IMG/VR virus record: IMGVR_UViG_2541047758_000011
Length of the DNA stretch: 57,499 nt
Source: a virus
Taxonomy: Duplodnaviria > Heunggongvirae > Uroviricota > Caudoviricetes
Reading direction: 5' to 3' (one strand)
Position numbers and translations under genes: made by a program. Every line of letters starts with the position of its first letter. The stretch's first letter is position 1. The notes under the pieces were generated by a model. The model saw nothing but the letters and a program-made list of their open reading frames with translations, had not been told where the DNA came from and did not search any database. Shown piece by piece: positions 2,441 through 56,131 of this stretch.

Positions 2441-3336
2441 AAATCCACCCCGTAAATCCAGTCAGTGTTTGTCAGGTCGAGTTTTGGTTTGCTGGCTGTC
2501 ACGCCTGCCTGTTGCTTGTTACGGTTGATTTCGAGCTGGGTCCACTTGTCGCGGAGTTTGGCCGGACTCAGCACGTTACCGGACCAGAAGTTGTCCTGGC
2601 AGGCCCAGCGGAAAAGCACACACATATCGCGGTGGTTACGTCCGTCACGTTCACGCATCAGGCGGATATCGTTAGCCCACCCAGCAAAATTCGGTTTTCT
2701 GGCTGATGGCGCGATGGTCTTCACCATGTCAAACATCCACTCTGCGGCGGTCAGGTCTTCTGCTGTTCCCCACTTGCTGCCGCTCTGAATTGCAGCATCC
2801 GGTTTAACCACAGAAAGATCGTTTTCTGGCTGGTCAGAGGATTCGCCAGAATTCTCGGACGAATAATCTTTTCTTTTTTCTTTTGTAATAGTGTCTTTTG
2901 TGTCTCCCTGTTTTGAGGGATAGCAATCCCCCAATTTGAGGGATGTTTTATCCCTCGTTTTAGGGGATTTTCCCTCGTTTTGAGGGATACACCATTCTGA
3001 GATGTTTTTATTTGGTCCAAACATGCCGCCTTGCTGCTTGATAATATTCATTCTGACGAGTTCTAACTTGGCTTCATTGCACCGTTTGACAGGTAACTTT
3101 GTAATCTCGCTAAGTTGAGAATCGGTGATTCTGTCCATTGGTTTATTCCACCCATAGGTTTTACGCAGAATGGCAAGCAGCACTTTAAACTGTCGCTTGG
3201 TCAGATCTGCGCCCGAATAAGCCTCAAGCAGCATATTTGATAGTCTGGCGTAACCATCATCGAGATCTGCCACATTACGCTCCTGTCCGGCAAAGTTACC
3301 TCTGCCGAAGTTGAGTATTTTTGCTGTATTTGTCAT
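2437..3336 (-). CDS. O: Replication initiator protein O
   Basis: 299 aa, MTNTAKILNFGRGNFAGQERNVADLDDGYARLSNMLLEAYSG... recalled as lambda O; contains ori iterons. Confidence 0.93.
   Translation of the reverse strand: MTNTAKILNFGRGNFAGQERNVADLDDGYARLSNMLLEAYSGADLTKRQFKVLLAILRKTYGWNKPMDRITDSQLSEITKLPVKRCNEAKLELVRMNIIKQQGGMFGPNKNISEWCIPQNEGKSPKTRDKTSLKLGDCYPSKQGDTKDTITKEKRKDYSSENSGESSDQPENDLSVVKPDAAIQSGSKWGTAEDLTAAEWMFDMVKTIAPSARKPNFAGWANDIRLMRERDGRNHRDMCVLFRWACQDNFWSGNVLSPAKLRDKWTQLEINRNKQQAGVTASKPKLDLTNTDWIYGVDL
2860..2990. repeat. ori-lambda-type iterons (four TCCCTC...GAGGGA-like repeats) plus AT-rich tract inside O
   Basis: Seen directly: tccctgttttgaggga, tcccccaatttgaggga, tccctcgttttagggga, tccctcgttttgaggga next to an A/T-rich stretch. 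Confidence 0.85.
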
Positions 3337-11340: not shown

Positions 11341-11662
11341 GGCCTGTCAGTTTCTTAAGATATCCAGACCAACCGCCACCAACTGGATACGAACAGGCCG
11401 CCTACAGGCAACACGCAAAGACCCCACTAAACCAAAATCTCCTTACCTCACAACGCGACAAGCCTGCATTGCGGCGCTTCAGTCTCCGCTGCATACTATC
11501 AAGGTGAGCGCGGGTGATGGCATAACAGAGGAAAGAAAATGTCACTCTTCCGCAGAAGTGAAATATGGTACGCCAGTTTCACATTGCCGAACGGTAAAAG
11601 ATTTAAACAGTCTCTTGGAACAAAGGACAAAAGGCAGGCGACAGAGCTCCATGACAAGCTAA
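11312..11662 (+). CDS. xis: Excisionase-like protein (Xis), overlapping int start by 124 nt
   Basis: [45 protein letters not shown]... HTH directly upstream of int; ORF stays open into int. Confidence 0.55.
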
Positions 11663-12702
11663 AGGCTGAAGCATGGCGGGTCAGCAAACTTGGTGAAATA
11701 CCTGATATGACGTTCGAGGAGGCGTGTATCAGGTGGCTCGAAGAGAAAGCACATAAAAAATCACTGGACGATGACAAAAGCCGGATCGGATTCTGGCTTC
11801 AACATTTCGCAGGAATGCAACTAAGAGACATTACTGAATCAAAAATTTATTCAGCAATGCAGAAAATGACGAACCGGCGTCATGAGGAAAACTGGAAACT
11901 CAGGGCAGAAGCATGCAGAAAAAAAGGGAAACCTGTTCCAGAATACACGCCAAAACCAGCGTCCGTTGCAACGAAGGCTACGCATCTTTCATTTATAAAG
12001 GCCCTACTAAGAGCCGCAGAGCGTGAATGGAAAATGCTGGATAAGGCACCAATTATTAAAGTGCCTCAACCAAAGAATAAACGGATCCGCTGGCTGGAGC
12101 CCCATGAAGCACAAAGGCTGATTGATGAATGTCCGGAGCCATTAAAGTCTGTTGTTGAATTTGCACTGGCAACAGGTTTAAGACGCTCGAACATCATCAA
12201 CCTTGAATGGCAACAAATAGATATGCAGCGCCGGGTGGCATGGATAAACCCGGAAGAGAGTAAATCAAACCGCGCAATCGGCGTTGCGCTGAATGATACT
12301 GCATGTCGCGTTTTGAAAAAACAAATCGGGAATCATCACCGTTGGGTATTTGTGTACAAGGAAAGCTGTACCAAACCAGACGGAACGAAAGCGCCAACAG
12401 TAAGGAAGATGCGGTATGACGCAAACACAGCCTGGAAAGCGGCGCTGAGACGAGCTGGTATTGATGATTTCAGATTTCACGACTTGAGACACACCTGGGC
12501 AAGTTGGCTGGTTCAAGCCGGAGTCCCGTTGTCAGTGTTACAGGAAATGGGTGGCTGGGAGTCTATCGAAATGGTTCGTCGATATGCTCACCTCGCGCCT
12601 AATCACCTTACCGAACACGCACGGCAAATAGACTCGATTCTGAACCCATCGGTCCCAAATTTGTCCCAGTCAAAAAATAAGGAAGGTACTAATGATGTGT
12701 AA
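11539..12702 (+). CDS. int: Tyrosine integrase (prophage A)
   Basis: 387 aa with C-terminal catalytic region ...[42 protein letters not shown]; stop 14 bp before tRNA 3' fragment. Confidence 0.9.
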
Positions 12703-12762
12703 CTTATTGATTTAAATGGTGCCGATAATAGGAGTCGAACCTACGACCTTCGCATTACGAAT
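12699..12762. repeat. 64-bp att core direct repeat (copy 1), identical to 56038-56101; includes 46-nt 3' fragment of tRNA-Thr (12717-12762)
   Basis: gtaacttattgatttaaatggtgccgataataggagtcgaacctacgaccttcgcattacgaat is present at both positions by direct comparison. Confidence 0.9.
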
Positions 12763-16995: not shown

Positions 16996-17067
16996 TGAAG
17001 TGGTTTACTGAATTTGGCCACCTGAACAGAGGTGATATGCTCACCTCAGAACAACACAGGTGCCATA

Positions 17068-18215
<1,148 letters not shown>

Positions 18216-18245
18216 CTCGGTGGCCAGTTTTTGTTGACCACTTCA

Positions 18246-18756
18246 ATTCTATTGCCGGAAGAGGTATTGCATTAAAACCAACGAGCGGGTTGATTATACT
18301 TGCTGCCGCTGTCTGCTTTGCCTCAGGCGCAAGATTTGGCATCAGATCGAACAGATTGGTAACAGCTTCAACCGTCATTTTCAATGTTCGCGCTTGACGA
18401 TACTCAACAAGTCCACTCGCTGATTTACCGCTTTTAATGTGCGCTTCTTGCATACTTTCAAGTTGGTCTACCAGTGAGCGGCGAACGGCTTTTGACTCGC
18501 GAGCGGCAACTCGCAATGCTTGCTTGATTGACATCTCAATGATAACCATCGAAGTTTTGTTCGCTTTTTGCACTACACTTTTTGTGTAGTGCTCTCCATC
18601 CAATTCATCTTCAATTTTCTCGATGAATTTGTTATTACGAACCTCCGGCTCACCGCACTGTCTACGAGCCTGATTTACCATCTCAAGCAGGCGCTGGCTG
18701 TCAATGGTTTTATCCGTGACAACGGATCCGATGTTTGCTACATTCTTAAAAGTCAT
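18246..18756 (-). pseudogene. N-terminal fragment of Rha/antirepressor-like regulatory gene interrupted by IS911
   Basis: ORF MTFKNVANIGSVVTDKTIDSQRLLEMVNQARRQCGEPEVRNNKFIEKI... runs into IS911 right end; family call is tentative. Confidence 0.4.
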
Positions 18757-24939: not shown

Positions 24940-25393
24940 TCTTTAGCTCCTCGTATTTTGAGCGCGGTAACTGATAAATCGTGATGCCTACAGGCTTTCC
25001 ATTGCTGGTATAAGCATCATCAAGGTGACCAACACGGGTAGCGCCAAGCAAACGGATAATTGACCGTCCGTATTTGGTGGTGTCAGGAACCATGGTGATG
25101 CTGTTAAGGAATGGTGAGTTTTCGAGAAGCCATTTGCAGAATAATCGATGCCCTTGCAGTGCATATTCACCACGGAATCCGGGGTCGTACACCGCATGGC
25201 ATTCCACAACGCTATGCCAGAAGTTACGCACTTCATGAACGCCAGCCAGCACTAATCCTTCGTAGATGCCGAGGTATACCGCATCAGGCTTGATGTAGTA
25301 TTTATCTCCACTGTCTACGATATTTCCCGTGTTTTCTGGGTTGTTGAGGAATTCTGCAAGCTTCACCGGGTTATCGATGAGTTTTATGTGCAT
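24914..25393 (-). CDS. Head assembly/DNA stabilization protein (P22 gp14-like)
   Basis: 159 aa; position between tail needle and ejection proteins. Confidence 0.6.
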   Translation of the reverse strand: MHIKLIDNPVKLAEFLNNPENTGNIVDSGDKYYIKPDAVYLGIYEGLVLAGVHEVRNFWHSVVECHAVYDPGFRGEYALQGHRLFCKWLLENSPFLNSITMVPDTTKYGRSIIRLLGATRVGHLDDAYTSNGKPVGITIYQLPRSKYEELKNVNFPDCQ

Positions 25394-26094
25394 TAGTTGA
25401 TTAATCCATGTGCTCGTAAGGCGTCTTCCAGTGCTTTGATGCGCTGCCGCGCCTGCTGCAAACCTGTAGCGAGAGCTGCGACTTCGGATTGTGTGTACGT
25501 AGTGCCGACCGTGTATGACTGGTTAGCGTTGAATGAGCCAAGAAGTGGCGTACCTGTGGCTGCAGTCCATCCGGTCTGCCTTGCTCCAACGACCTGAATT
25601 CCATCAACTGAATATGATGTTTTTACATCCAGCGGTGACTCAAGAGACTGCAATTCGGTTACGGTTTTCGATACGTAATCACTCTTAATGCCAGAGACAT
25701 CGTTTTCTACGTCATCCAGTCTTTTGTCAACAGTGACCAGATGCGCCTGAATATCGATAACCTCATCCAGCAAGTAATCAACATCGCTACGCAGTACGAC
25801 TATCTTCCCTTCGGCGGTTGTTAACCTGACCTCAAGGAGATTTATCGCTTTTGTGTTTGCGGTGATTCTTGCGTCGTGATCAGCCAGTTCGACATCCTGT
25901 TCATCGTTTTTTACCTGGGCATCGTAAGCGCCCTGACCGGCCTGATTTGCCTTCCCGGCAATTGCACCGACATCAGCTCCCTGATTTATGACATACAGCA
26001 GGTAAGACTGGCTGAATATATTGCGTGGCAAAATTGAAGCATCAAGGCGCGTAGCCTGAACCACAACAGGATCATTCAGTGATGAATCAACCAT
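25393..26094 (-). CDS. Tail needle protein (P22 gp26)
   Basis: 233 aa; N-terminus ..[69 protein letters not shown] and C-terminus ..[11 protein letters not shown] match P22 gp26. Confidence 0.9.
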
Positions 26095-26588
26095 TACTCA
26101 ATCCTCTGCCTTGCAAACTCTCCAAAATTTTCTGCTCTTGCCATCATTGATGCTGAGATAGCTTCGTCCAGGTCATCGAAGCATCCAACGTGAACCTGTT
26201 TTTTATTTTTCTTGAAAGAAACAGTCCACTTGCAGAGATTTTTGTGCCAACAGACACCAGGATATCCTGACTTATTATTTCTTTGAATATTCCTGTTCAT
26301 CCCATTCTGGGATCTATTTGCCAATCTTAAATTTGAAAATCTGTTATCCGTTCTGTCTCCGTTAATATGATCTATTAAGCAATTTGCAGGTTTTCCTGTC
26401 ATATAAAACCAAGCAAGCCTATGCGCTAAGTATCTCTTACCACAGACCATTATCCTTAAATAACCAGTGCACATGGTTCCCGCTTCATCACCAACGGTGA
26501 CGCTCGCTGTATTTGATATTTTTCGGGTAAAAACCCCGGTTTCTGGGTCATATGATAAATGACGCTTCAACTCTTCATGTGAAATCAT
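26094..26588 (-). CDS. HNH homing endonuclease (HNH_3 + AP2-like DNA-binding domain)
   Basis: ..[26 protein letters not shown].. HNH motif plus ..[35 protein letters not shown].. AP2-like; inserted precisely between gp10 stop and gp26 start. Confidence 0.8.
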
Positions 26589-26590
26589 TA

Positions 26591-28018
26591 TTACTCCAGC
26601 CTAATAGAGCAGCCTGAGAGAGTGACTGGTGACTTCGTAATAACGCGCAATTTGAAGCCGACATTTTTCCTGATGCGCCCGACTCGCTTCCACAAAACAC
26701 GTTTGTCGTAAACGAACGGTTCATTCTGTTCAATCATCTGCTCACGTCCGTAATTTATGCCGTCAGTGGTTGCAGAGAGGAACAGGCGGTCGGCGTACTG
26801 AGCTACGCCAGTGGATGATTCCACCTCCAGATCGAAGCATCTGGCGTTATCCGCTTTGAACAACGGAGTAAACAACAGGTGTTCCTGTTGCTTGTCGTAC
26901 TGGCTGCTGATGTCGAATTGCAATTTCCCGGTCACGGACTCCAGTTTATCGCCGCACGTTATCTGATTTCCTTCGAAAATGAAGTCGATAGCGCGGTACA
27001 CATCGTCATACAGGCCTGTTTTCAGCACACACCATTGCGGACCATTGGCGCTTGAAGATGCGTCGTACACGAGAACATGGCGCGGAAGGTGGATAATCAG
27101 CAACTCATGAGCATCAAATCGCAGAGACTCCATCACGCCATCAGCCAGTTCATCAGCAGTGTAGGAGCGTAGTATTTTCTCAATGCTCGCGCTGGCGATT
27201 GGTGATACCTGACCGGAGCCGATGATATACACAGACGGCGCACCCGTTGCCGGATTGCTGATGAAAGCATAAGAATCAGCGAATGGTGTTTTGCAGTAAG
27301 TCCCGGCAATACCTTTCTGCACCATCAGCGATGGCTGTGCGACATACAACGCGGCACCAACGGTGGTTGCCCCAGTCAGGGAAAAATATTCAATCGTCGA
27401 TGAACCAAAGCAGACGATGAAGTCTCGCCATGTTCCGATACCGATGATGCCGTCCGGCTGAGACTCGGCACGATATTGTGCGCTGTAACGGTCAGGATGC
27501 GATTCGTCTTCAAGGTCAGTGATAAACCATGAATCAGTTCCGTCTTTTGACCACGCATAACGCCCACGTAAGCGCGTAATGTCGCGGACCGAGCCTAACT
27601 CATACTGAGTGAATCCGCTATCAGTAGGCCAGTTTGAGACTGTTTTAACTGTGCCATCATAGCGATACTCGACCAGTTGACCATTAACGCCTACAGCCTG
27701 TGATGTTCGACCATGCGCCATTGATACGCGACCACTTCCGGCGACGTCACCGACTTCGCTTTCGCCTTTGTAGAGCTTCCCACCACACACGCGATAAACA
27801 GCACTCTGCGCCATGTTGTACTCGACGCCTCGAGATACACCGTTCACATCAGAGCGTTTGACAATGCCCGGGAATGAGCGAAGATATCCCGATGAATTCA
27901 ACACCTCCTTGGGCGTAGCTAAAAGATTGACTGGAAGTTGGTCTATATAATCAGCATTAACCGCACTTTTCCCTAATCCCTTCATTAGTGGTAGTTGTTG
28001 TATTGCCATTGGAATCAA
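26591..28018 (-). CDS. Tail hub protein (P22 gp10)
   Basis: 475 aa, long identity runs with P22 gp10 (..AVYRVCGGKLYKGESEVGDVAGSGRVSMAHGRTSQAVGVNGQLVEYRYDGTVKTVSNWP..); start may be downstream of 28018. Confidence 0.88.
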   Translation of the reverse strand: MIPMAIQQLPLMKGLGKSAVNADYIDQLPVNLLATPKEVLNSSGYLRSFPGIVKRSDVNGVSRGVEYNMAQSAVYRVCGGKLYKGESEVGDVAGSGRVSMAHGRTSQAVGVNGQLVEYRYDGTVKTVSNWPTDSGFTQYELGSVRDITRLRGRYAWSKDGTDSWFITDLEDESHPDRYSAQYRAESQPDGIIGIGTWRDFIVCFGSSTIEYFSLTGATTVGAALYVAQPSLMVQKGIAGTYCKTPFADSYAFISNPATGAPSVYIIGSGQVSPIASASIEKILRSYTADELADGVMESLRFDAHELLIIHLPRHVLVYDASSSANGPQWCVLKTGLYDDVYRAIDFIFEGNQITCGDKLESVTGKLQFDISSQYDKQQEHLLFTPLFKADNARCFDLEVESSTGVAQYADRLFLSATTDGINYGREQMIEQNEPFVYDKRVLWKRVGRIRKNVGFKLRVITKSPVTLSGCSIRLE

Positions 28019-28541
28019 CCTTTATATGAACCCAGTTAGCATCACGCTTTAGCCTACTTGCCCAGGTCTTAGATATCCCGTACTTAGCCGCAATTACTGA
28101 CAAGCTTTCTTTTGATGACTTGATTGCAAGAACATCGTCATCACTCAACTTGTGTTTTGGGTGCTTGGTTCCGAAAAACTTGATTGGTTTCTTTAATCCT
28201 GTGGCGTATGCATGTTTGATGTTTTCGCTTTGAGTGCACCACTCAAGATTATTGACGTTATTATTGAGTGGATTGCCATCAATATGATTTACCTGAGGCT
28301 TGTTTTCAGGATTTGGCAGGAATGTCATTGCAACGATTCGATGGGCAAAAGTCCATTTTGCTCCGATATTATAAAGCACCCTTCCCTGATTTATTTTAGG
28401 CTTTAACCAGCGCCCCTTTCTGAGTTGCGTGCTGCCATGCGCAGCCTTAACAACACGTGAGTGAGAATACACCCTGCCATCTTCTGTTACGGCATAAACA
28501 CCTTCAAATCCAGGTATATCTTTAGCATTCTCAGAAAGCAT
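27957..28541 (-). CDS. HNH homing endonuclease (NUMOD4-like N-term + HNH_3)
   Basis: ..IPGFEGVYAVTEDGRVYS.. and ..VNHIDGNPLNNNVNNLEWCTQSEN..; sits between gp10 N-terminal remnant and restored gp10 start, overlapping gp10 5' end. Confidence 0.8.
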   Translation of the reverse strand: MLSENAKDIPGFEGVYAVTEDGRVYSHSRVVKAAHGSTQLRKGRWLKPKINQGRVLYNIGAKWTFAHRIVAMTFLPNPENKPQVNHIDGNPLNNNVNNLEWCTQSENIKHAYATGLKKPIKFFGTKHPKHKLSDDDVLAIKSSKESLSVIAAKYGISKTWASRLKRDANWVHIKVDSNGNTTTTTNEGIREKCG

Positions 28542-28577
28542 ATCTACTCCTTAAAGTTTCGATTTTTCATGTACTTA

Positions 28578-28682
28578 TTATATCAAAATTGCCAACATAT
28601 TCACTGGCAGATAGTCGATATAGTCAGCGTTTCGGAAGTCTTTGCCGACACCTTTCATAAGCGGAAGTTGCTGAATCGGCAT
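28578..28682 (-). pseudogene. Displaced original 5' end of gp10 (34 codons, MPIQQLPLMKGVGKDFRNADYIDYLPVNMLA..) upstream of HNH gene
   Basis: Manual translation matches the P22 gp10 N-terminus more closely than the N-terminus of the full-length gp10 ORF; ends in a stop after 34 codons. Confidence 0.6.
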
Positions 28683-28691
28683 TTATTCACC

Positions 28692-29153
28692 TCACGTACT
28701 CGGATCATCTTTCTCGATGTAAAACCGATTCCACGTAAACGCGCTTTTGTTACCACTACCGCGAGGCATGTCATTTCGCCGCTCAAGTGGTGGTATTTTG
28801 GTTAAAGCGATACAGATTGTCTGATATGCACTGTCAGCAGCGGTAAGGAGAGCGTCTGACGGCTGAATGACGTTATCCATGCACACTTGCACAGCGAGTT
28901 TCAAAGCGACGCCATCATTTGCCCATGCAGGGATACCTGAATCATCGTCCGGTAACGGCATCATGCCGTTTTCTGTATCAGCAAACTGATACCCAAGCTC
29001 GATACCTTTAGCCTGCCATGCTGCCATCATGTCTTCGAGGTCATTAATGGCATCTTCAATTGCCTGAGGGTCAGCATCTGTCAACGTGGCATTGGAATAC
29101 AGCCCGGCTTTTCGTAAAGCCTTTAGAACGAGATCACCCTTCGTTTTCGCCAT
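28692..29153 (-). CDS. Head completion/tail accessory protein (P22 gp4-like)
   Basis: 153-aa ORF between coat and gp10 region. Confidence 0.75.
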   Translation of the reverse strand: MAKTKGDLVLKALRKAGLYSNATLTDADPQAIEDAINDLEDMMAAWQAKGIELGYQFADTENGMMPLPDDDSGIPAWANDGVALKLAVQVCMDNVIQPSDALLTAADSAYQTICIALTKIPPLERRNDMPRGSGNKSAFTWNRFYIEKDDPST

Positions 29154-29322
29154 CTTCTTCCGCCTTAGCCACTTTATGCTTCGTTGCGGTTTCTTCAGGA
29201 GTTTTTACCCAGCCTTTTTTCAGGTGAGATTTAACTTCTTCGTCATCAACAATGATGTAATCGACAGCAAACTGACCACAGGTGATCATGTTGCCCGGCT
29301 TATAGAGCATTGTTCGTGCCAT
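29134..29322 (-). CDS. Hypothetical small protein (62 aa)
   Basis: ORF between coat and gp4; start chosen at internal Met (MARTMLYKPG..). Confidence 0.4.
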   Translation of the reverse strand: MARTMLYKPGNMITCGQFAVDYIIVDDEEVKSHLKKGWVKTPEETATKHKVAKAEEDGENEG

Positions 29323-33819: not shown

Positions 33820-35235
33820 TCAACCTACACCACAAGGAATTGAGTAACTGGAATAGTCGGGTTGCGCAGCCGACTCCGGGCAATGCATACACATCATCAG
33901 CGCATCAGCCAGGTTAGGAGATGGAATACCGAGCTTCTGCTTCATTTCGACCTTAGTCATAAGCTCCAGCTTCCCGTTGTTATTGAATTTGCGCTGAATC
34001 TGCGTCAGTTCTGCAAACAGCTTCTCCAGCATCTTCTCGCCTATCGCTTCTTTGTCGAAACTCAGCATGTCGTCGGGGTCTGCATACTCACCGTGAACAA
34101 CCGCCCGATATGTCAGATACAGCCTGTCAGCCAGCGCGTAATAGAATTGCGCTCGCTTATTGCGGAATACATCGCCAATAGTGCGAACGTTGTCGCCCTG
34201 TACGACTTCATCAGCCCATGCTCCGGCCTGATAAGGCGCATCTTCATCGAATGGCGATTCGCTGCCCTTGAACATCGTGGCGGTGATTTTCTTACCGGAG
34301 AATGCTTCCGTTGTCTGTCTGCGTAGCCCGGCACCAACACCATCACCATCCCACAGGTAATGGTCAGCACCGTCTTCAATCGCCAGCGAAGTAGCCCAGT
34401 CAGCCCCCTCGTTGATATCCATCAGCAGACCTTCGGCAATGCGCTTAACTACCGAACCGTGGCGCGATGCATAACCTTTAGCATCCGGTCCTGTATCTGA
34501 TGGGTCATGTGCAGAGACAACCGCGCCCTTCGCTTTCCATCCGAGTTTCTTGTGCGCATCGGTTGCGGCTTCAAGCCATTCTCGCTTGATGATTGCCATA
34601 TCACTTGCGCTCACTGGCTCACCAAGCCAGATGTGACGATACAGTGTCGGGTTTCTGCGTTTACACTCTTCCATCTCCAGACGGAGAACTTCAGGAAAGT
34701 GCGGGTTGTCGGTGTAGTTCACCGTCAGCAGACAAATATCATCGGGAGGGTTTACTACGAATCGCTGATAGGTATCGTCGAGGATGTTTTTCGGGTTGAA
34801 GCTCACCCATATTTCGGAAAATGGCTTGCGGATGGTTGGGATCAGGATATCCCATGATTCCTTCGTTACCGCTTCCGCTTCTTCCACCCAGCAGATATCA
34901 ATACCTTCGAGCGATTTAATCTTCGTCGGGTTGTTTTTGATGCCGTAGAACATGAATTCAGCATTCGTTCCGAGATGACGAATCATTGAACGCTGAATTT
35001 CAAACTCAGCTGAATACCCTTCACGCTCGATGGTATCTTCAAGCAGCCGGATTACCGAATCACTGATACTGTTTTGCAGTTCACGAGCACAGAGGATGCG
35101 CACCGGCTGCCGACGCGCCGCTTCAACAAGCAGCCTCGCAATTGCCCATGATTTACCGCTACCTCGACCGCCTTTGGCGACTTTGTAGCGATGCGCCTCA
35201 ATGAACGGTTCAAAGATAGGATTAATCGAGGTCAT
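33820..35235 (-). CDS. Terminase large subunit
   Basis: N-terminal Walker A (KGGRGSGKSW) ATPase plus nuclease domain; directly upstream of portal. Confidence 0.88.
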   Translation of the reverse strand: MTSINPIFEPFIEAHRYKVAKGGRGSGKSWAIARLLVEAARRQPVRILCARELQNSISDSVIRLLEDTIEREGYSAEFEIQRSMIRHLGTNAEFMFYGIKNNPTKIKSLEGIDICWVEEAEAVTKESWDILIPTIRKPFSEIWVSFNPKNILDDTYQRFVVNPPDDICLLTVNYTDNPHFPEVLRLEMEECKRRNPTLYRHIWLGEPVSASDMAIIKREWLEAATDAHKKLGWKAKGAVVSAHDPSDTGPDAKGYASRHGSVVKRIAEGLLMDINEGADWATSLAIEDGADHYLWDGDGVGAGLRRQTTEAFSGKKITATMFKGSESPFDEDAPYQAGAWADEVVQGDNVRTIGDVFRNKRAQFYYALADRLYLTYRAVVHGEYADPDDMLSFDKEAIGEKMLEKLFAELTQIQRKFNNNGKLELMTKVEMKQKLGIPSPNLADALMMCMHCPESAAQPDYSSYSIPCGVG

Positions 35236-38522: not shown

Positions 38523-38598
38523 TGGTGCTGGTTAACGGACTTGAACCGCTACCCATTCGCTTACAAGACGACTGCTCTACCATTAGAGCTAAACCAGC
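38523..38598 (-). tRNA. Phage tRNA-like gene, anticodon read as UGU (Thr); one mismatch in anticodon stem
   Basis: Manual fold: 7-bp acceptor stem (GCTGGTT/AACCAGC), D-arm GCTC/GAGC, T-loop TTCAAGT, discriminator A + CCA; anticodon loop CTTGTAA. Confidence 0.5.
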
Positions 38599-38603
38599 AT
38601 GTT

Positions 38604-38678
38604 TGGCGGGACAGCGTGGACTCGAACCACGATAAGAAGGTTAACAGCCTTCCGTAATGACCTTTATACGACTGACCC
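38604..38678 (-). tRNA. Phage tRNA-like gene, anticodon read as GUU (Asn); atypical D-arm
   Basis: Manual fold: T-arm CGTGG-TTCGAGT-CCACG, anticodon stem GAAGG/CCTTC with loop CTGTTAA, 3' ...GCCA; acceptor 6/7 pairs, D-stem 3/4. Confidence 0.45.
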
Positions 38679-42315: not shown

Positions 42316-43409
42316 TTAATACTCCGTCACGTTTTCCTGTCGCCACGCCTCGTCATATTCCGATTTCGGCATATTGGCGATGTAGCTATATGGCGATCCT
42401 GATTCAAGTTGCAGGAACTGGTGCGATTGCTCGTCAAGGAACAACGGGACACCACCTTCCCAACCTTCGCCGTTACGTTGTTTTTCAAGCATCAAAACAG
42501 ATGCCGGAGATGCCAGTAGCTGTTCGTCCTTCTCTGACATCTTTTCACCACTCTGAACTCTCTGTAACGCTCTCTCGCGAGCCTTGTTACGCCAGATGAT
42601 GAAAAGGTTGTCTGTCAGGTCTGTTATCGCTCCAGAGCCTTTTACGTCCATTTTCCCGGTTGGTTTTTCTTCGCTGTCTCCTTTTCGCGAGTGAGTAACG
42701 AGAATGACGTGGGAGTTTGTTTTGTTTTTGAAGTCGCAAATCGAGTCAACAAACGCCTTCTGCCCGTTATAGTCATCGTCGCCTATGCCACATTTCATCA
42801 GGCTGTCGATGATGAATAACTGGATCCCGTATCGGCGGCGAGCGTAGTCGAATATTTCGATCAGCCTGTCGGCTTTCGCCGTTCCGGTCAGGCCAAACAC
42901 CCAAAGTCTTTCGTCATAAAATTTAAATGCAGAGTCAATTTCCAGCACTGGCGGAATCTTGCAGCACGTCGCCTGACGGGTAAGGCGCTTAAGGAGAATA
43001 CCAGGCTTCAGCTCAAGTGACGCGATGCACGTCTTCACACCCTGCCGCATTGCCTCAAGTGCCATATGCCCGACAACCTCCGTTTTTCCGTGACCGTTCA
43101 CACCATTGACCAGCGTCAACTCTGCCTCACGGAACTGGAATTTATCTGCCAGAGATTCCCACGGTGGATTAAACAGATACTGCTGCTTGCCGTAGAAAGC
43201 GTTGATAGTGTCCTGGTAAAACTCTCGCGCGCTGTAGAGTTCTTCAGGATCGAAGTAGGATGCCGTGCCGATGTACTGCCAGATTTCATCCTCGGTAACA
43301 CCGTTCATCAGGCATTCGTTGATGTCTTTGTACGGCAGAGTAACAAGACGGCAACGATGTTCACCGAGTCGGCTTGCGATTTCCCTTGCGGCTTCACGAC
43401 CAACATCAT
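42316..43409 (-). pseudogene. C-terminal (DnaB-like helicase) part of primase-helicase gene, separated from its 5' part by IS911
   Basis: ..LVNGVNGHGKTEVVGHMALEAMRQGVKTCIASLE.. Walker A and ..LFIIDSLMKCG.. RecA-fold motifs; the track ORF start at 43308 lies just outside the IS. Confidence 0.7.
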
Positions 43410-44659
<1,250 letters not shown>

Positions 44660-54656: not shown

Positions 54657-55004
54657 GTGGAAGAAGAAATCTTCACTCGTGAAGAGGCAGCATCGTATCT
54701 GAAGGTAGACAAAGGCACTATCACGCAGTGGATACGAAGTGGACGACTTCAGGCCGCAAAGATAAATCCAGATAAACCTAAAAGCCCATATCGCATTTGC
54801 AAGTCAGACTGCATTGCGGCGCTTAAGTCTGTAAGACACAATAGCGCGGTGAATGCGGTTGATGTGCAGGAGGTTAAAGCATGTCAATCAAACTACGCGG
54901 TGGCACGTGGCACTGTGATTTCGTCGCGCCAGATGGATCAAGAGTTAGACGCTCTCTTGAAACATCGGACAAAAGGCAAGCGCAAGAACTTCACGATCGT
55001 CTGA
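54657..55004 (+). CDS. xis: Excisionase-like protein (Xis), GTG start, overlapping int by 124 nt
   Basis: ..EEIFTREEAASYLKVDKGTITQWIRSGRLQAAKINPDKPKSPYRICKSDCIAAL.. same architecture as prophage A xis. Confidence 0.55.
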   Translation: MEEEIFTREEAASYLKVDKGTITQWIRSGRLQAAKINPDKPKSPYRICKSDCIAALKSVRHNSAVNAVDVQEVKACQSNYAVARGTVISSRQMDQELDALLKHRTKGKRKNFTIV

Positions 55005-56041
55005 AAGCAGAAGCGTGGAGAGTAAAAAATCTCGGGGAATCACCGAAAAAGCTATTCAAGGAAGCCTGCATACGGTGGCTTCGTGAGAAATCGGATAAGA
55101 AGTCCATTGATGATGACAAGAGCATTATATCGTTCTGGATGTTGCACTTCAGAGAAACCATTCTCTCAGACATAACAACAGAAAAAATAATGGAGGCGGT
55201 AGACGGGATGGAAAACCGCCGCCATCGCCTGAACTGGGAAATGAGCCGGGACAGGTGTTTGCGGCTTGGCAAGCCAGTGCCGGAGTATAAACCAAAGCTG
55301 GCAAGCAAAGGAACGAAGACGCGGCATCTGGCAATACTTCGCGCTATTCTCAATATGGCTGTTGAATGGGGATGGCTTGACAGGGCGCCCAAAATATCAA
55401 CACCACGCGTTAAGAATGGACGAATCAGATGGCTTACAGAGGAGGAATCGAAGCGCCTGTTTGCAGAAATTGCTCCTCATTTCTTCCCTGTGGTCATGTT
55501 TGCAATCACGACAGGCCTTCGCCGTTCCAACGTTACAGACCTTGAGTGGTCACAGGTCGATCTGGATAAGAAAATGGCATGGATGCACCCTGATGAAACA
55601 AAAGCTGGCAATGCGATCGGAGTTCCTCTTAACGAAACCGCATGCCAGATATTAAGAAAACAGCAGGGTCTCCATAAGAGATGGGTGTTTGTCCACACCA
55701 AACCTGCCTACCGAAGCGACGGAACAAAAACAGCAGCGGTAAGGAAGATGAGAACCGACAGCAACAAGGCATGGAAGGGAGCGTTAAAGCGGGCAGGCAT
55801 TAGCAACTTCCGCTTCCATGACCTGAGGCATACTTGGGCAAGCTGGCTGGTTCAGTCCGGTGTCTCTCTTCTTGCACTTAAAGAGATGGGAGGATGGGAA
55901 ACTCTAGAAATGGTTCAAAGATACGCCCACCTTTCAGCCGGGCATCTCACCGAGCACGCGAGCAAAATCGATGCGATTATAAGTCGCAATGGCACAAATA
56001 CGGCACAAGAGGAGAACGTGGTTTACTTAAATGCGAGGTAA
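54881..56041 (+). CDS. int: Tyrosine integrase (prophage B)
   Basis: 386 aa, C-terminal ..[42 protein letters not shown]; stop 14 bp before tRNA-Thr 3' end. Confidence 0.9.
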   Translation: MSIKLRGGTWHCDFVAPDGSRVRRSLETSDKRQAQELHDRLKAEAWRVKNLGESPKKLFKEACIRWLREKSDKKSIDDDKSIISFWMLHFRETILSDITTEKIMEAVDGMENRRHRLNWEMSRDRCLRLGKPVPEYKPKLASKGTKTRHLAILRAILNMAVEWGWLDRAPKISTPRVKNGRIRWLTEEESKRLFAEIAPHFFPVVMFAITTGLRRSNVTDLEWSQVDLDKKMAWMHPDETKAGNAIGVPLNETACQILRKQQGLHKRWVFVHTKPAYRSDGTKTAAVRKMRTDSNKAWKGALKRAGISNFRFHDLRHTWASWLVQSGVSLLALKEMGGWETLEMVQRYAHLSAGHLTEHASKIDAIISRNGTNTAQEENVVYLNAR

Positions 56042-56101
56042 CTTATTGATTTAAATGGTGCCGATAATAGGAGTCGAACCTACGACCTTCGCATTACGAA
56101 T
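56038..56101. repeat. 64-bp att core direct repeat (copy 2), spanning int stop, spacer and 3' 46 nt of tRNA-Thr
   Basis: Identical to 12699-12762 by direct comparison. Confidence 0.9.
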
Positions 56102-56131
56102 GCGCTGCTCTACCAACTGAGCTATATCGGC
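56056..56131 (-). tRNA. thrW: tRNA-Thr (anticodon CGU)
   Basis: Reverse complement GCCGATATAGCTCAGTTGGTAGAGCAGCGCATTCGTAATGCGAAGGTCGTAGGTTCGACTCCTATTATCGGCACCA folds as canonical cloverleaf; matches E. coli thrW from memory. Confidence 0.9.

Follow-up and report, generated by a model that had tools for sequence, protein, structure and literature searches.

We analysed a 57,499-nt stretch of DNA from a tailed virus (Caudoviricetes; IMG/VR record IMGVR_UViG_2541047758_000011), hereafter called the window, and found that its gp10 gene, which belongs to the head-completion part of a P22-like (Lederbergvirus-type) late operon, carries an HNH endonuclease gene at each of its two ends, named here HNH2 (27957-28541) and HNH1 (26094-26588). 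These two genes very probably (probability about 0.85) belong to two independent mobile cassettes, each consisting of a free-standing homing endonuclease gene (HEG) that invaded the gp10 coding sequence and brought a recoded substitute gene end with it, with neither an intron nor an intein. This reading draws directly on the anatomy of the locus, on the presence or absence of each cassette at a fixed site in many backgrounds, on a converted flank, on purifying selection on the substitute gene end and on the viability of carriers. All genes of the region lie on the minus strand, in the order gp4, a 34-codon open reading frame (ORF), HNH2, gp10, HNH1 and gp26, and the gp10 gene found here is a hybrid, composed of a cassette-borne 5' end, a native body and last codons that came with HNH1. 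An initial annotation of this DNA had already placed two HNH genes at these coordinates, which was borne out by the ORFs and by Pfam matches.

The HNH2 cassette and the substitute 5' end of gp10

The insertion site of the HNH2 cassette was defined by aligning the empty alleles of CUS-3, vB_EcoP-683R2 (683R2) and P22 with the occupied alleles of the window and of phage UPF_BP1; this comparison with insert-free P22-like phages, which the initial annotation had called for, also delimited the duplication. The insert is 673 nt long relative to empty alleles (27918-28590, minus strand) and its insertion point lies within codon 31 of gp10 (GC/A...GC/T), with an ambiguity due to the shared GC. The 34-codon ORF found upstream (28578-28682, minus strand) matches positions 1-28 of the Phage_stabilise model (7e-11) and retains the native Shine-Dalgarno (SD) sequence (GAGGTG) and ATG. 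Its codons 1-31 (28590-28682) match the start of CUS-3 gp10 at 31/31 amino acids and 90/93 nt, confirming the earlier view that this remnant encodes the authentic gp10 N-terminus. After these native codons, the remnant reads ILI-stop from inserted DNA (ATT TTG ATA TAA TAA), and the in-frame stops that terminate it are provided by the TGATATAAT motif. In strain MS 115-1, PGAP annotated the remnant as a pseudogene.

The insert itself is made, in this order, of TGATATAAT, of a leader (AATCGAAAC...AAGGAG), of the HNH2 ORF, of a new ATG at 28009 and of a second copy of gp10 codons 1-31. TGATATAAT (28577-28585, minus strand) is an extended -10-like motif located at the left cassette end. The AAGGAG read at 28547-28552 (minus strand) is the ribosome-binding site of HNH2 and lies within a conserved leader, AATCGAAAC-N4-5-GGAGTAGAYATG, that is common to all 5'-type cassettes and to the NUMOD4 HEGs of the gp10/gp26 junction described below. 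TGNTATAAT occurs a single time in the 57.5-kb window and TGnTATAAT is kept at the same position in 5/5 diverged cassette variants; TGATATAAT is then a putative HNH2 promoter, a function suggested by the conservation of the extended -10.

HNH2 (minus strand) encodes a protein of 194 amino acids with NUMOD4 and HNH_3 domains (Pfam), and gp10 most likely starts at ATG 28009, 53 nt inside the 3' end of HNH2. PGAP also calls this ATG, and the TTG at 28018 that was picked by the ORF finder is not conserved in related cassettes. HNH2 residues 174-194 correspond to an alternative-frame reading of the substitute gp10 5' end: homologues of HNH2 with less than 61% identity align to residues 1-173 only, and this tail uses the same frame as P22 gp4 does where it runs through the start of the native gp10. 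At the insertion point, the native DNA (28590-28609, minus strand) consists of an inverted repeat, TGCCAGTG-AATA-TGTTGGCA, which precedes ATTTTG in the occupied allele. Although this repeat was picked up as a terminator-like site, it may mark the recognition site of the endonuclease instead.

The substitute 5' end carried by the cassette comprises gp10 codons 1-40 (27890-28009, minus strand): its codons 1-31 duplicate the remnant, while its codons 32-40 replace native sequence. Over these 40 codons, it shares 66% nt identity with the native 5' end, 21 codons having changed synonymously and 8 nonsynonymously, and no identical run exceeds 11 nt, which agrees with the initial description of a full-length gp10 starting with a similar but recoded N-terminus that overlaps the endonuclease 3' end. 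From codon 41 on, the window gp10 matches empty alleles. The G+C content at third codon positions (GC3) is 0.35 in the substitute and 0.40 in HNH2, compared with 0.60 in the native 5' end and 0.54 in the gp10 body. When comparing 27 HNH2-bearing with 29 HNH2-free gp10 alleles, we found that all HNH2-associated sites (allele-frequency difference >0.8; 44/44) were located in gp10 nt 1-120, with none beyond. Since these 44 sites are confined to nt 1-120 and since the GC3 of the substitute resembles that of the HEG and not that of gp10, the recoded N-terminus is an integral and sharply bounded part of the mobile cassette, whose right edge lies at codon 40, where identity sufficient for homologous recombination resumes. 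The earlier proposal of a homing invasion with co-conversion of flanking sequence thus holds for the invasion of gp10, but not for the recoded N-terminus, which is not an ordinary co-converted flank.

An SD-like element precedes the substitute ATG in every cassette variant and, among the five substitute 5' ends that we compared, the proportion of synonymous differences (pS) was 0.5-0.8 versus 0.07-0.27 for nonsynonymous differences (pN). Since synonymous differences among variants far exceed nonsynonymous ones, the substitute ends are translated and under purifying selection. Excess synonymous divergence between the substitute and the native end (pS 0.96) was considered separately and rejected: with 21/30 comparable codons differing, it amounts to unrelated codon choice.

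The resulting functional gp10 gene (26591-28009, minus strand) encodes a hybrid protein of 472 amino acids that matches 469/469 positions of Phage_stabilise and belongs to phrog_578 (head closure Hc3). Compared with the Sf6 gene 8 protein (PDB 7SG7), it differs at 8/40 of the first and 3/6 of the last residues, but at only ~6/425 of the intervening ones, and the two cassettes explain why its amino-acid differences cluster at both extreme ends.

A very different possibility is that the HNH2 insert is a self-splicing intron, a translational bypass or an intein, gp10 then being produced from the remnant joined to codon 32. Joining 28590 to 27917 does give a perfect native gp10, and the introns of SPO1-like phages do encode HNH_3/NUMOD4 enzymes such as I-HmuI. 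However, the covariance-model search that the initial annotation had suggested (an Rfam scan of 25300-29300 at E<=10) detected no intron family, returning only a sub-threshold MicA match on the other strand. Moreover, the ORF takes up all but ~90 nt of the 673-nt insert and, judged by eye, the exon lacks the terminal U of a group I 5' splice site. As for an intein, it is excluded by three in-frame stops (TAA TAA ... TAA) between the remnant and HNH2, which also reads the gp10 5' end in a different frame. The cassette has its own ATG, its own SD and a complete N-terminus under purifying selection, all of which would be redundant if the insert was spliced. We therefore give hardly any credence to a gp10 restored by splicing or bypass.

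The HNH1 cassette and the distribution of both cassettes

At the opposite end of gp10, the HNH1 ATG lies 2 nt from the gp10 stop (26591-26593) and the HNH1 stop overlaps the ATG of gp26 (TAATG). HNH1 (minus strand) is a free-standing HEG of the HNH_3 type with an AP2-like region (164 amino acids; Pfam and PHROG), and gp26 (25393-26094, minus strand), the tail needle gene, was recognized by synteny with P22, CUS-3 and Sf6. Empty alleles end with ...GGCTGC CAG ATA AGG ATC GAG TAATG(gp26), whereas occupied alleles read ...GGCTGC TCT ATT AGG CTG GAG TAA TA ATG...(HNH1)...CAG AGG ATT GAG TAATG(gp26). The cassette is then inserted into the last gp10 codons and brings an 18-nt recoded replacement 3' end (26591-26608, minus strand; TCTATTAGGCTGGAGTAA replacing CAGATAAGGATCGAGTAA), while HNH1 terminates on the native last codons and stop of gp10 (CAG AGG ATT GAG TAA at 26094-26108, minus strand, aligned with CAGATAAGGATCGAGTAATG of empty alleles), so that the TAATG coupling to gp26 is preserved. 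The initial annotation had given the right coordinates when it placed HNH1 between the gp10 stop and the gp26 start, but it had missed that the gene sits in the last gp10 codons, supplies a recoded 3' end and reuses the native one.

The recoded 18-nt end is invariant in 12/12 HNH1-bearing loci, while upstream polymorphisms vary, and the six HNH1-associated sites all lie within the last ~20 nt of gp10. In its sequence organization, HNH1 thus looks like a miniature of the HNH2 device, set at the opposite end of the gene. Beside it, the gp26 5' end of the window (26023-26092, codons 1-24) differs at many positions from the CUS-3/683R2 type (MADSNLNTPVIVQ...). This variant was seen in 6/10 independent HNH1-bearing IMG/VR loci (L174, L176, L177, L182, L183 and the source contig of the window) and could be either a converted flank or an independent gp26 allele.

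HNH2 was found at >=98% identity in 27 IMG/VR contigs, in 18/5426 complete E. coli genomes and in the Salmonella phage UPF_BP1. These copies always come with the same remnant and the same junctions, but their surroundings comprise at least four types of gp4 and several types of coat and gp26, while the empty site is found in CUS-3, 683R2, P22 and ~29 other loci. HNH1 was detected in 11 IMG/VR contigs, in 13 E. coli genomes (plus 3 with an IS2-disrupted HNH1) and in phage 683R2, with an invariant left edge (TCTATTAGGCTGGAGTAATAATG) in 12 loci next to at least four gp26 5' variants; its empty site is found in CUS-3, UPF_BP1 and P22. The flanking gp10 was matched in ~900 (HNH2) and ~600 (HNH1) E. 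coli genomes, each cassette occupying ~2% of them, and none of the listed E. coli genomes carried both cassettes together. Both are present in a single IMG/VR contig, L014, which is identical to the window. Finding the same arrangement in independent assemblies makes it neither a chance product nor an assembly artefact, and both cassettes appear as presence/absence polymorphisms at fixed sites in many P22-like genomes.

UPF_BP1 is particularly informative: between the coat gene and the HNH2 junction, gp4 included, its identity to P22 is 100%, and past this junction come a cassette that is 98-100% identical to that of the window and ~240 nt of window-like gp10, followed by 300 nt of pure P22 sequence and then by a patchy remainder. 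This is the pattern that one would expect if a P22 genome had recently been invaded by homing and its right flank converted. Since UPF_BP1 was reported as an isolated phage with lytic activity and since 683R2 was deposited as a complete phage genome, both being viable carriers, the hybrid gp10 genes appear to be functional.

These data also bear on the idea that the locus arose by a local tandem duplication followed by divergence in this lineage, the HNH gene being an incidental and non-mobile passenger. Duplications do occur in prophages, and no remnant-free donor was found. Nevertheless, an identical cassette with identical junctions is present in UPF_BP1, where the left side is 100% P22, and in at least four other gp4 backgrounds; synonymous differences between the two copies have reached saturation (pS 0.96), while gp10 is otherwise 93-97% identical to empty alleles; and the codon composition of the substitute matches that of the HEG. 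Such an origin is then very improbable in our opinion.

Public records reflect these loci unevenly. RefSeq already annotates an HNH gene and a remnant pseudogene. In the UPF_BP1 record (L001, NC_047875, 2175-3593), gp10 is called from an internal start, 108 nt too far downstream, and the remnant is unannotated, while HNH1 is labelled 'endolysin' in the 683R2 record (L003, 2432-2926). Knowing the cassettes should help to correct the start of UPF_BP1 gp10 and the label of 683R2 HNH1, and to recognize a remnant that is easily mistaken for a broken gene.

Related lineages, predicted endonuclease activity and proposed mechanism

Searching a large protein database, we found relatives of HNH2 at 83, 82, 72 and 69% identity (loci L167-L172), all encoded between gp4 and gp10 of more distant P22-like phages. 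In each of them, a local remnant (26-34 codons) is followed by TGnTATAAT, by the same leader, by the HEG and by a complete gp10 N-terminus proper to that locus, and gp10 starts inside the 3' end of the endonuclease gene, with an SD-like element upstream. Since endonucleases that are only 69-83% identical all share it, the layout made of a remnant, an endonuclease and a substitute end is an old and maintained design. P22 and most of the diverged-cassette genomes have a gp4 that extends 29-59 nt past the start of gp10, so the first part of the remnant would still be needed there to finish gp4, and entry downstream of the overlap with a new gp10 start would spare both genes. In the CUS-3-like background of the window, gp4 (head-tail adaptor; 28692-29153, minus strand; Pfam P22_Tail-4 8e-41), which is 99% identical to CUS-3 gp4, does not overlap gp10, and the remnant is consequently without an evident role.

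The initial annotation had regarded such genes as unusual cargo in a P22-like structural operon, a view that does not fit with the at least four HEG lineages that we found at the two gp10 ends in P22-like prophages of E. coli, Salmonella and Providencia, nor with the HNH gene annotated by RefSeq. Two further NUMOD4-HNH lineages, 55% and 43% identical to HNH2, occupy the gp10/gp26 junction (L004 2524-3069; L033-L044 and L052-L056 ~2501-3040; L205 2501-3061 in Salmonella; L208 2501-3043 in Providencia). They share the AATCGAAAC...GGAGTAGATATG leader, and each is associated with a recoded, AT-rich tract (~330 nt) in the 3' part of gp10 (GFKFRVIAKGPVTLSGLSIRVT-stop replacing GFKLRVITKSPVTLSGCQIRIE-stop). 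Four IMG/VR contigs (L014, L026, L028 and L029) have an endonuclease gene at both gp10 ends. Another related NUMOD4-HNH gene, P0036 (46% identical to HNH2), belongs to Salmonella prophages, in which it separates the nin region from the lysis genes (L206/L207 2501-3019), and is very widespread, being indexed in 4431 blocks of the collection.

Both proteins of the window are ordinary members of phage HNH homing-endonuclease families. HNH2 matches NUMOD4 (1e-8) and HNH_3 (2e-10) in Pfam and aligns through residues 7-116 with I-HmuI (1U3E; E 1e-8), an alignment that spans the N-terminal DNA-binding region and the HNH motif and in which the equivalents of H75, N87 and N96 are kept. Its residues N85, H86, N98, N107 and H110 are present in 113-121 of 121 sequences (HNH2 and 120 database relatives). 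HNH1 matches HNH_3 over 46/46 model positions (4e-16, 58.7 bits), with D73-H74...N86...N95 read from the sequence, and belongs to phrog_99 (HNH endonuclease, 4e-70), both proteins matching PHROG HNH-endonuclease families. The initial annotation had named in advance the loss of catalytic residues as fatal to its proposal, and these residues are kept in both proteins. In PADLOC, both match only the generic 'HEase' model, through shared HNH homology.

We also considered the terminase-associated HNH proteins of HK97 gp74 type, which are encoded next to the terminase genes in cos-packaging phages. This candidate was rejected: the two genes of the window lie among gp4, gp10 and gp26, ~6-8 kb away from an ORF (33820-35235) that is probably the terminase gene, judging by its position beside the portal ORF.

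The HNH2 cassette stops the native 5' end of gp10 and supplies TGnTATAAT, a ribosome-binding site and the HEG, then an SD-like element and an ATG followed by 40 recoded codons, after which the native gene resumes at codon 41. If HNH2 is active, this cassette could spread as follows. During a mixed infection, or upon encounter of a prophage with a superinfecting phage, the enzyme would nick or cut the native sequence around the site in a cassette-less gp10, and repair would then copy the cassette from the carrier, with the remnant and gp4 providing homology on the left and the part of gp10 that follows codon 40 providing it on the right. Empty alleles are highly conserved around codon 31, and the substitute differs from this native sequence at many positions; the carrier would be immune because its target is split and its functional copy recoded. 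Deletion of the cassette by repeat recombination should also be hindered, since the remnant and the substitute share little identity (longest run 11 nt).

Several observations weigh against this reading or limit it. Cleavage by HNH1 and HNH2, the cleavage site and the immunity of carriers are features that we infer from their sequences. HNH2 has an Asn at the position of I-HmuI D74, which precedes the catalytic His and which we take to be a metal ligand, although Asn is the family norm at this position (113/121). The AP2 match of HNH1 (23.3 bits, 8e-5) is below the gathering score of 33.3 and its similarity to the AP2 domain of PDB 3IGM is weak (E 0.004 over 22 residues), making this assignment tentative. 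The TGATATAAT site was not reported by a sigma-70 promoter scan and its -35 is poor by eye. Searches of phage, GTDB, metagenome and protein data found no remnant-free HNH2 donor between gp4 and gp10 and no lineage to which the substitute N-terminus is native, which leaves the origin of the composite without a donor lineage: a tblastn search with the first 50 amino acids against 50,697 phage records gave UPF_BP1 at 100% and then nothing above 86%; HNH2 had nothing closer than 49% in GTDB species representatives; the leader pattern TATAATAA-N9-10-AATCGAAAC gave mostly chance matches in metagenomes, plus two true cassettes that both have a remnant; and the first 60 amino acids matched only short native-type fragments (<=85%) in the large protein database. 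Finally, HNH2 is decaying elsewhere, with truncated proteins of 140 and 108 amino acids (P0005 and P0007) and a split gene in strain ES5 (H49), and HNH1 is interrupted by IS2 in E. coli strain 2779 (L204 1261-2887). Since copies decay elsewhere, activity of the window copy is not guaranteed, but such decay fits with a cycle of invasion followed by degeneration.

Could both HNH genes of the window be inactive relics, retained only because their deletion would damage gp10? HEG life-cycle theory predicts decay after fixation, and the 140- and 108-residue HNH2 forms, the split gene of ES5 and the IS2 insertion in HNH1 are examples of decayed copies. In the window, though, both ORFs are full length with all conserved motif residues, and their 99-100% identity to copies in many backgrounds indicates recent spread. 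We thus find this explanation improbable.

Another proposal, in which homing would be a mere by-product, is that the endonucleases are mainly prophage weapons, HNH2 being expressed in the lysogen from its own constitutive promoter and cutting superinfecting P22-like phages with a native gp10. This proposal is compatible with two mobile cassettes and differs only in which effect was selected. TGnTATAAT is found upstream of HNH2 in all variants although the gene is already in the late operon, at least four HEG lineages on one gene suggest an arms race, and PMC11620839 reports a precedent, with an intron endonuclease that mediates competition of co-infecting phages. The matches of both proteins to the 'HEase' model of PADLOC might be added, except that they reflect only shared HNH homology. 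Considering that the putative promoter has no good -35 and that expression and exclusion are conjectural, a primary function as a weapon seems unlikely to us.

More broadly, gene-end replacement may be a distinct and maintained strategy, in which a self-contained module made of a promoter, an HEG and an N-terminus co-evolved across P22-like phages; it may solve the problem of the gp4/gp10 overlap, it may serve against superinfection, and the gp10 ends would then be an arms-race hotspot for at least four lineages. We put this forward tentatively, as an idea whose chances are a little short of even.

Elsewhere in the window, a 64-bp perfect direct repeat (12699-12762 and 56038-56101) overlaps the 3' part of a tRNA-Thr(cgt) gene (56056-56131), and each copy abuts an integrase-sized ORF (11539-12702 and 54881-56041). 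This suggests two prophages in tandem at the tRNA-Thr(cgt) gene: the P22-like prophage would span ~12.7-56.1 kb and part of another lambdoid element would occupy 1-12.7 kb. Two 100% identical copies of a 1252-bp sequence, about the size of an insertion sequence and each with ORFs of 272 and 149 amino acids, lie in inverted orientation at 16996-18247 and 43408-44659, on either side of the entire virion-assembly module. The prophage also has a pair of adjacent tRNA genes, Thr(tgt) and Asn(gtt), at 38523-38678, upstream of the late operon.

Comparison with known systems

I-HmuI and I-HmuII come from the Bacillus phages SPO1 and SP82, I-HmuI being a nicking enzyme encoded in a group I intron of the DNA polymerase gene. 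HNH2 keeps the catalytic His and Asn residues of I-HmuI (1U3E), but it has no detected intron and its C-terminal region did not align. HNH-AP2 endonucleases are known in phages and cyanobacteria, and HNH1, which combines HNH_3 with an AP2-like C-terminal region, tentatively resembles these.

The free-standing HEGs of T4-like phages, such as SegF, SegG and MobE, home without an intron; they are intergenic and cut a neighbouring gene, and their target is neither duplicated nor replaced. ICP1 also has stand-alone homing endonuclease genes that are not associated with an intron (PMC10448857). Like them, the gp10 cassettes stand alone, without intron or intein, by or in an essential gene, with co-converted flanks; in both cases the carriers are thought to be protected by differences in the target sequence and the HEGs are found at boundaries of genetic exchange. 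Unlike theirs, the insertion points in gp10 are inside the coding sequence.

HEGs also split genes, as in Aeh1 nrdA/mobE and T4 39/60/mobA. The similarity with gp10 is that an HEG interrupts a coding region, with no intron involved, and that the gene keeps its function. In these split genes, of which nrdD of Felix O1-like phages is another case (PMC4837284), both fragments are expressed and cooperate, whereas the upstream fragment of gp10 is redundant and gp10 is made as a single polypeptide.

A search of the full-text literature found no description of HEG cassettes in gp10 of P22-like phages, although the main P22-like genome papers lay outside that search and an earlier mention is possible, nor any description of gene-end replacement for phages. 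The gp10 locus illustrates that a selfish HEG can occupy an essential virion gene of a temperate phage without splicing, by means of a recoded spare gene end, and it offers a testable system, within one of the best-understood phage assembly pathways and with P22, Sf6 and CUS-3 as empty recipients and UPF_BP1 or the present prophages as donors, for homing, for target immunity by recoding and for endonuclease-driven mosaicism of structural genes.

By analogy, the closest described parallel seems to be the fungal mitochondrial mORF with a duplicated gene end. In these elements, an endonuclease ORF carries a foreign and diverged C-terminal copy of atp6, atp9, cox2 or nad3, while the native C-terminus is left as a remnant and the inserted copy is far more diverged, at 64-81% nt identity (PMC3630166). 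Such hybrid genes were described for atp6 of Allomyces macrogynus (Paquin et al. 1994, as cited in PMC3630166) and for atp6, atp9, cox2 and nad3 of Glomus (PMC3630166). The gp10 cassettes likewise bring a foreign gene end that replaces the native one in the expressed gene, with the remnant beside it: for HNH2, the remnant is 97% nt identical to empty alleles versus 66% for the substitute, and for HNH1 there are 18 recoded nt and a native remnant of 12-15 nt. HNH1 has the same orientation as the mORFs, with an inserted C-terminus, an endonuclease in phase and the native C-terminus, even if its duplication is of only 12-18 nt. HNH2 is rather their mirror image: it replaces an N-terminus, needs a new start and SD, and apparently brings its own promoter. 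While the mORFs concern C-termini of mitochondrial genes, the cassettes described here would thus extend the parallel to HNH enzymes in a temperate phage.

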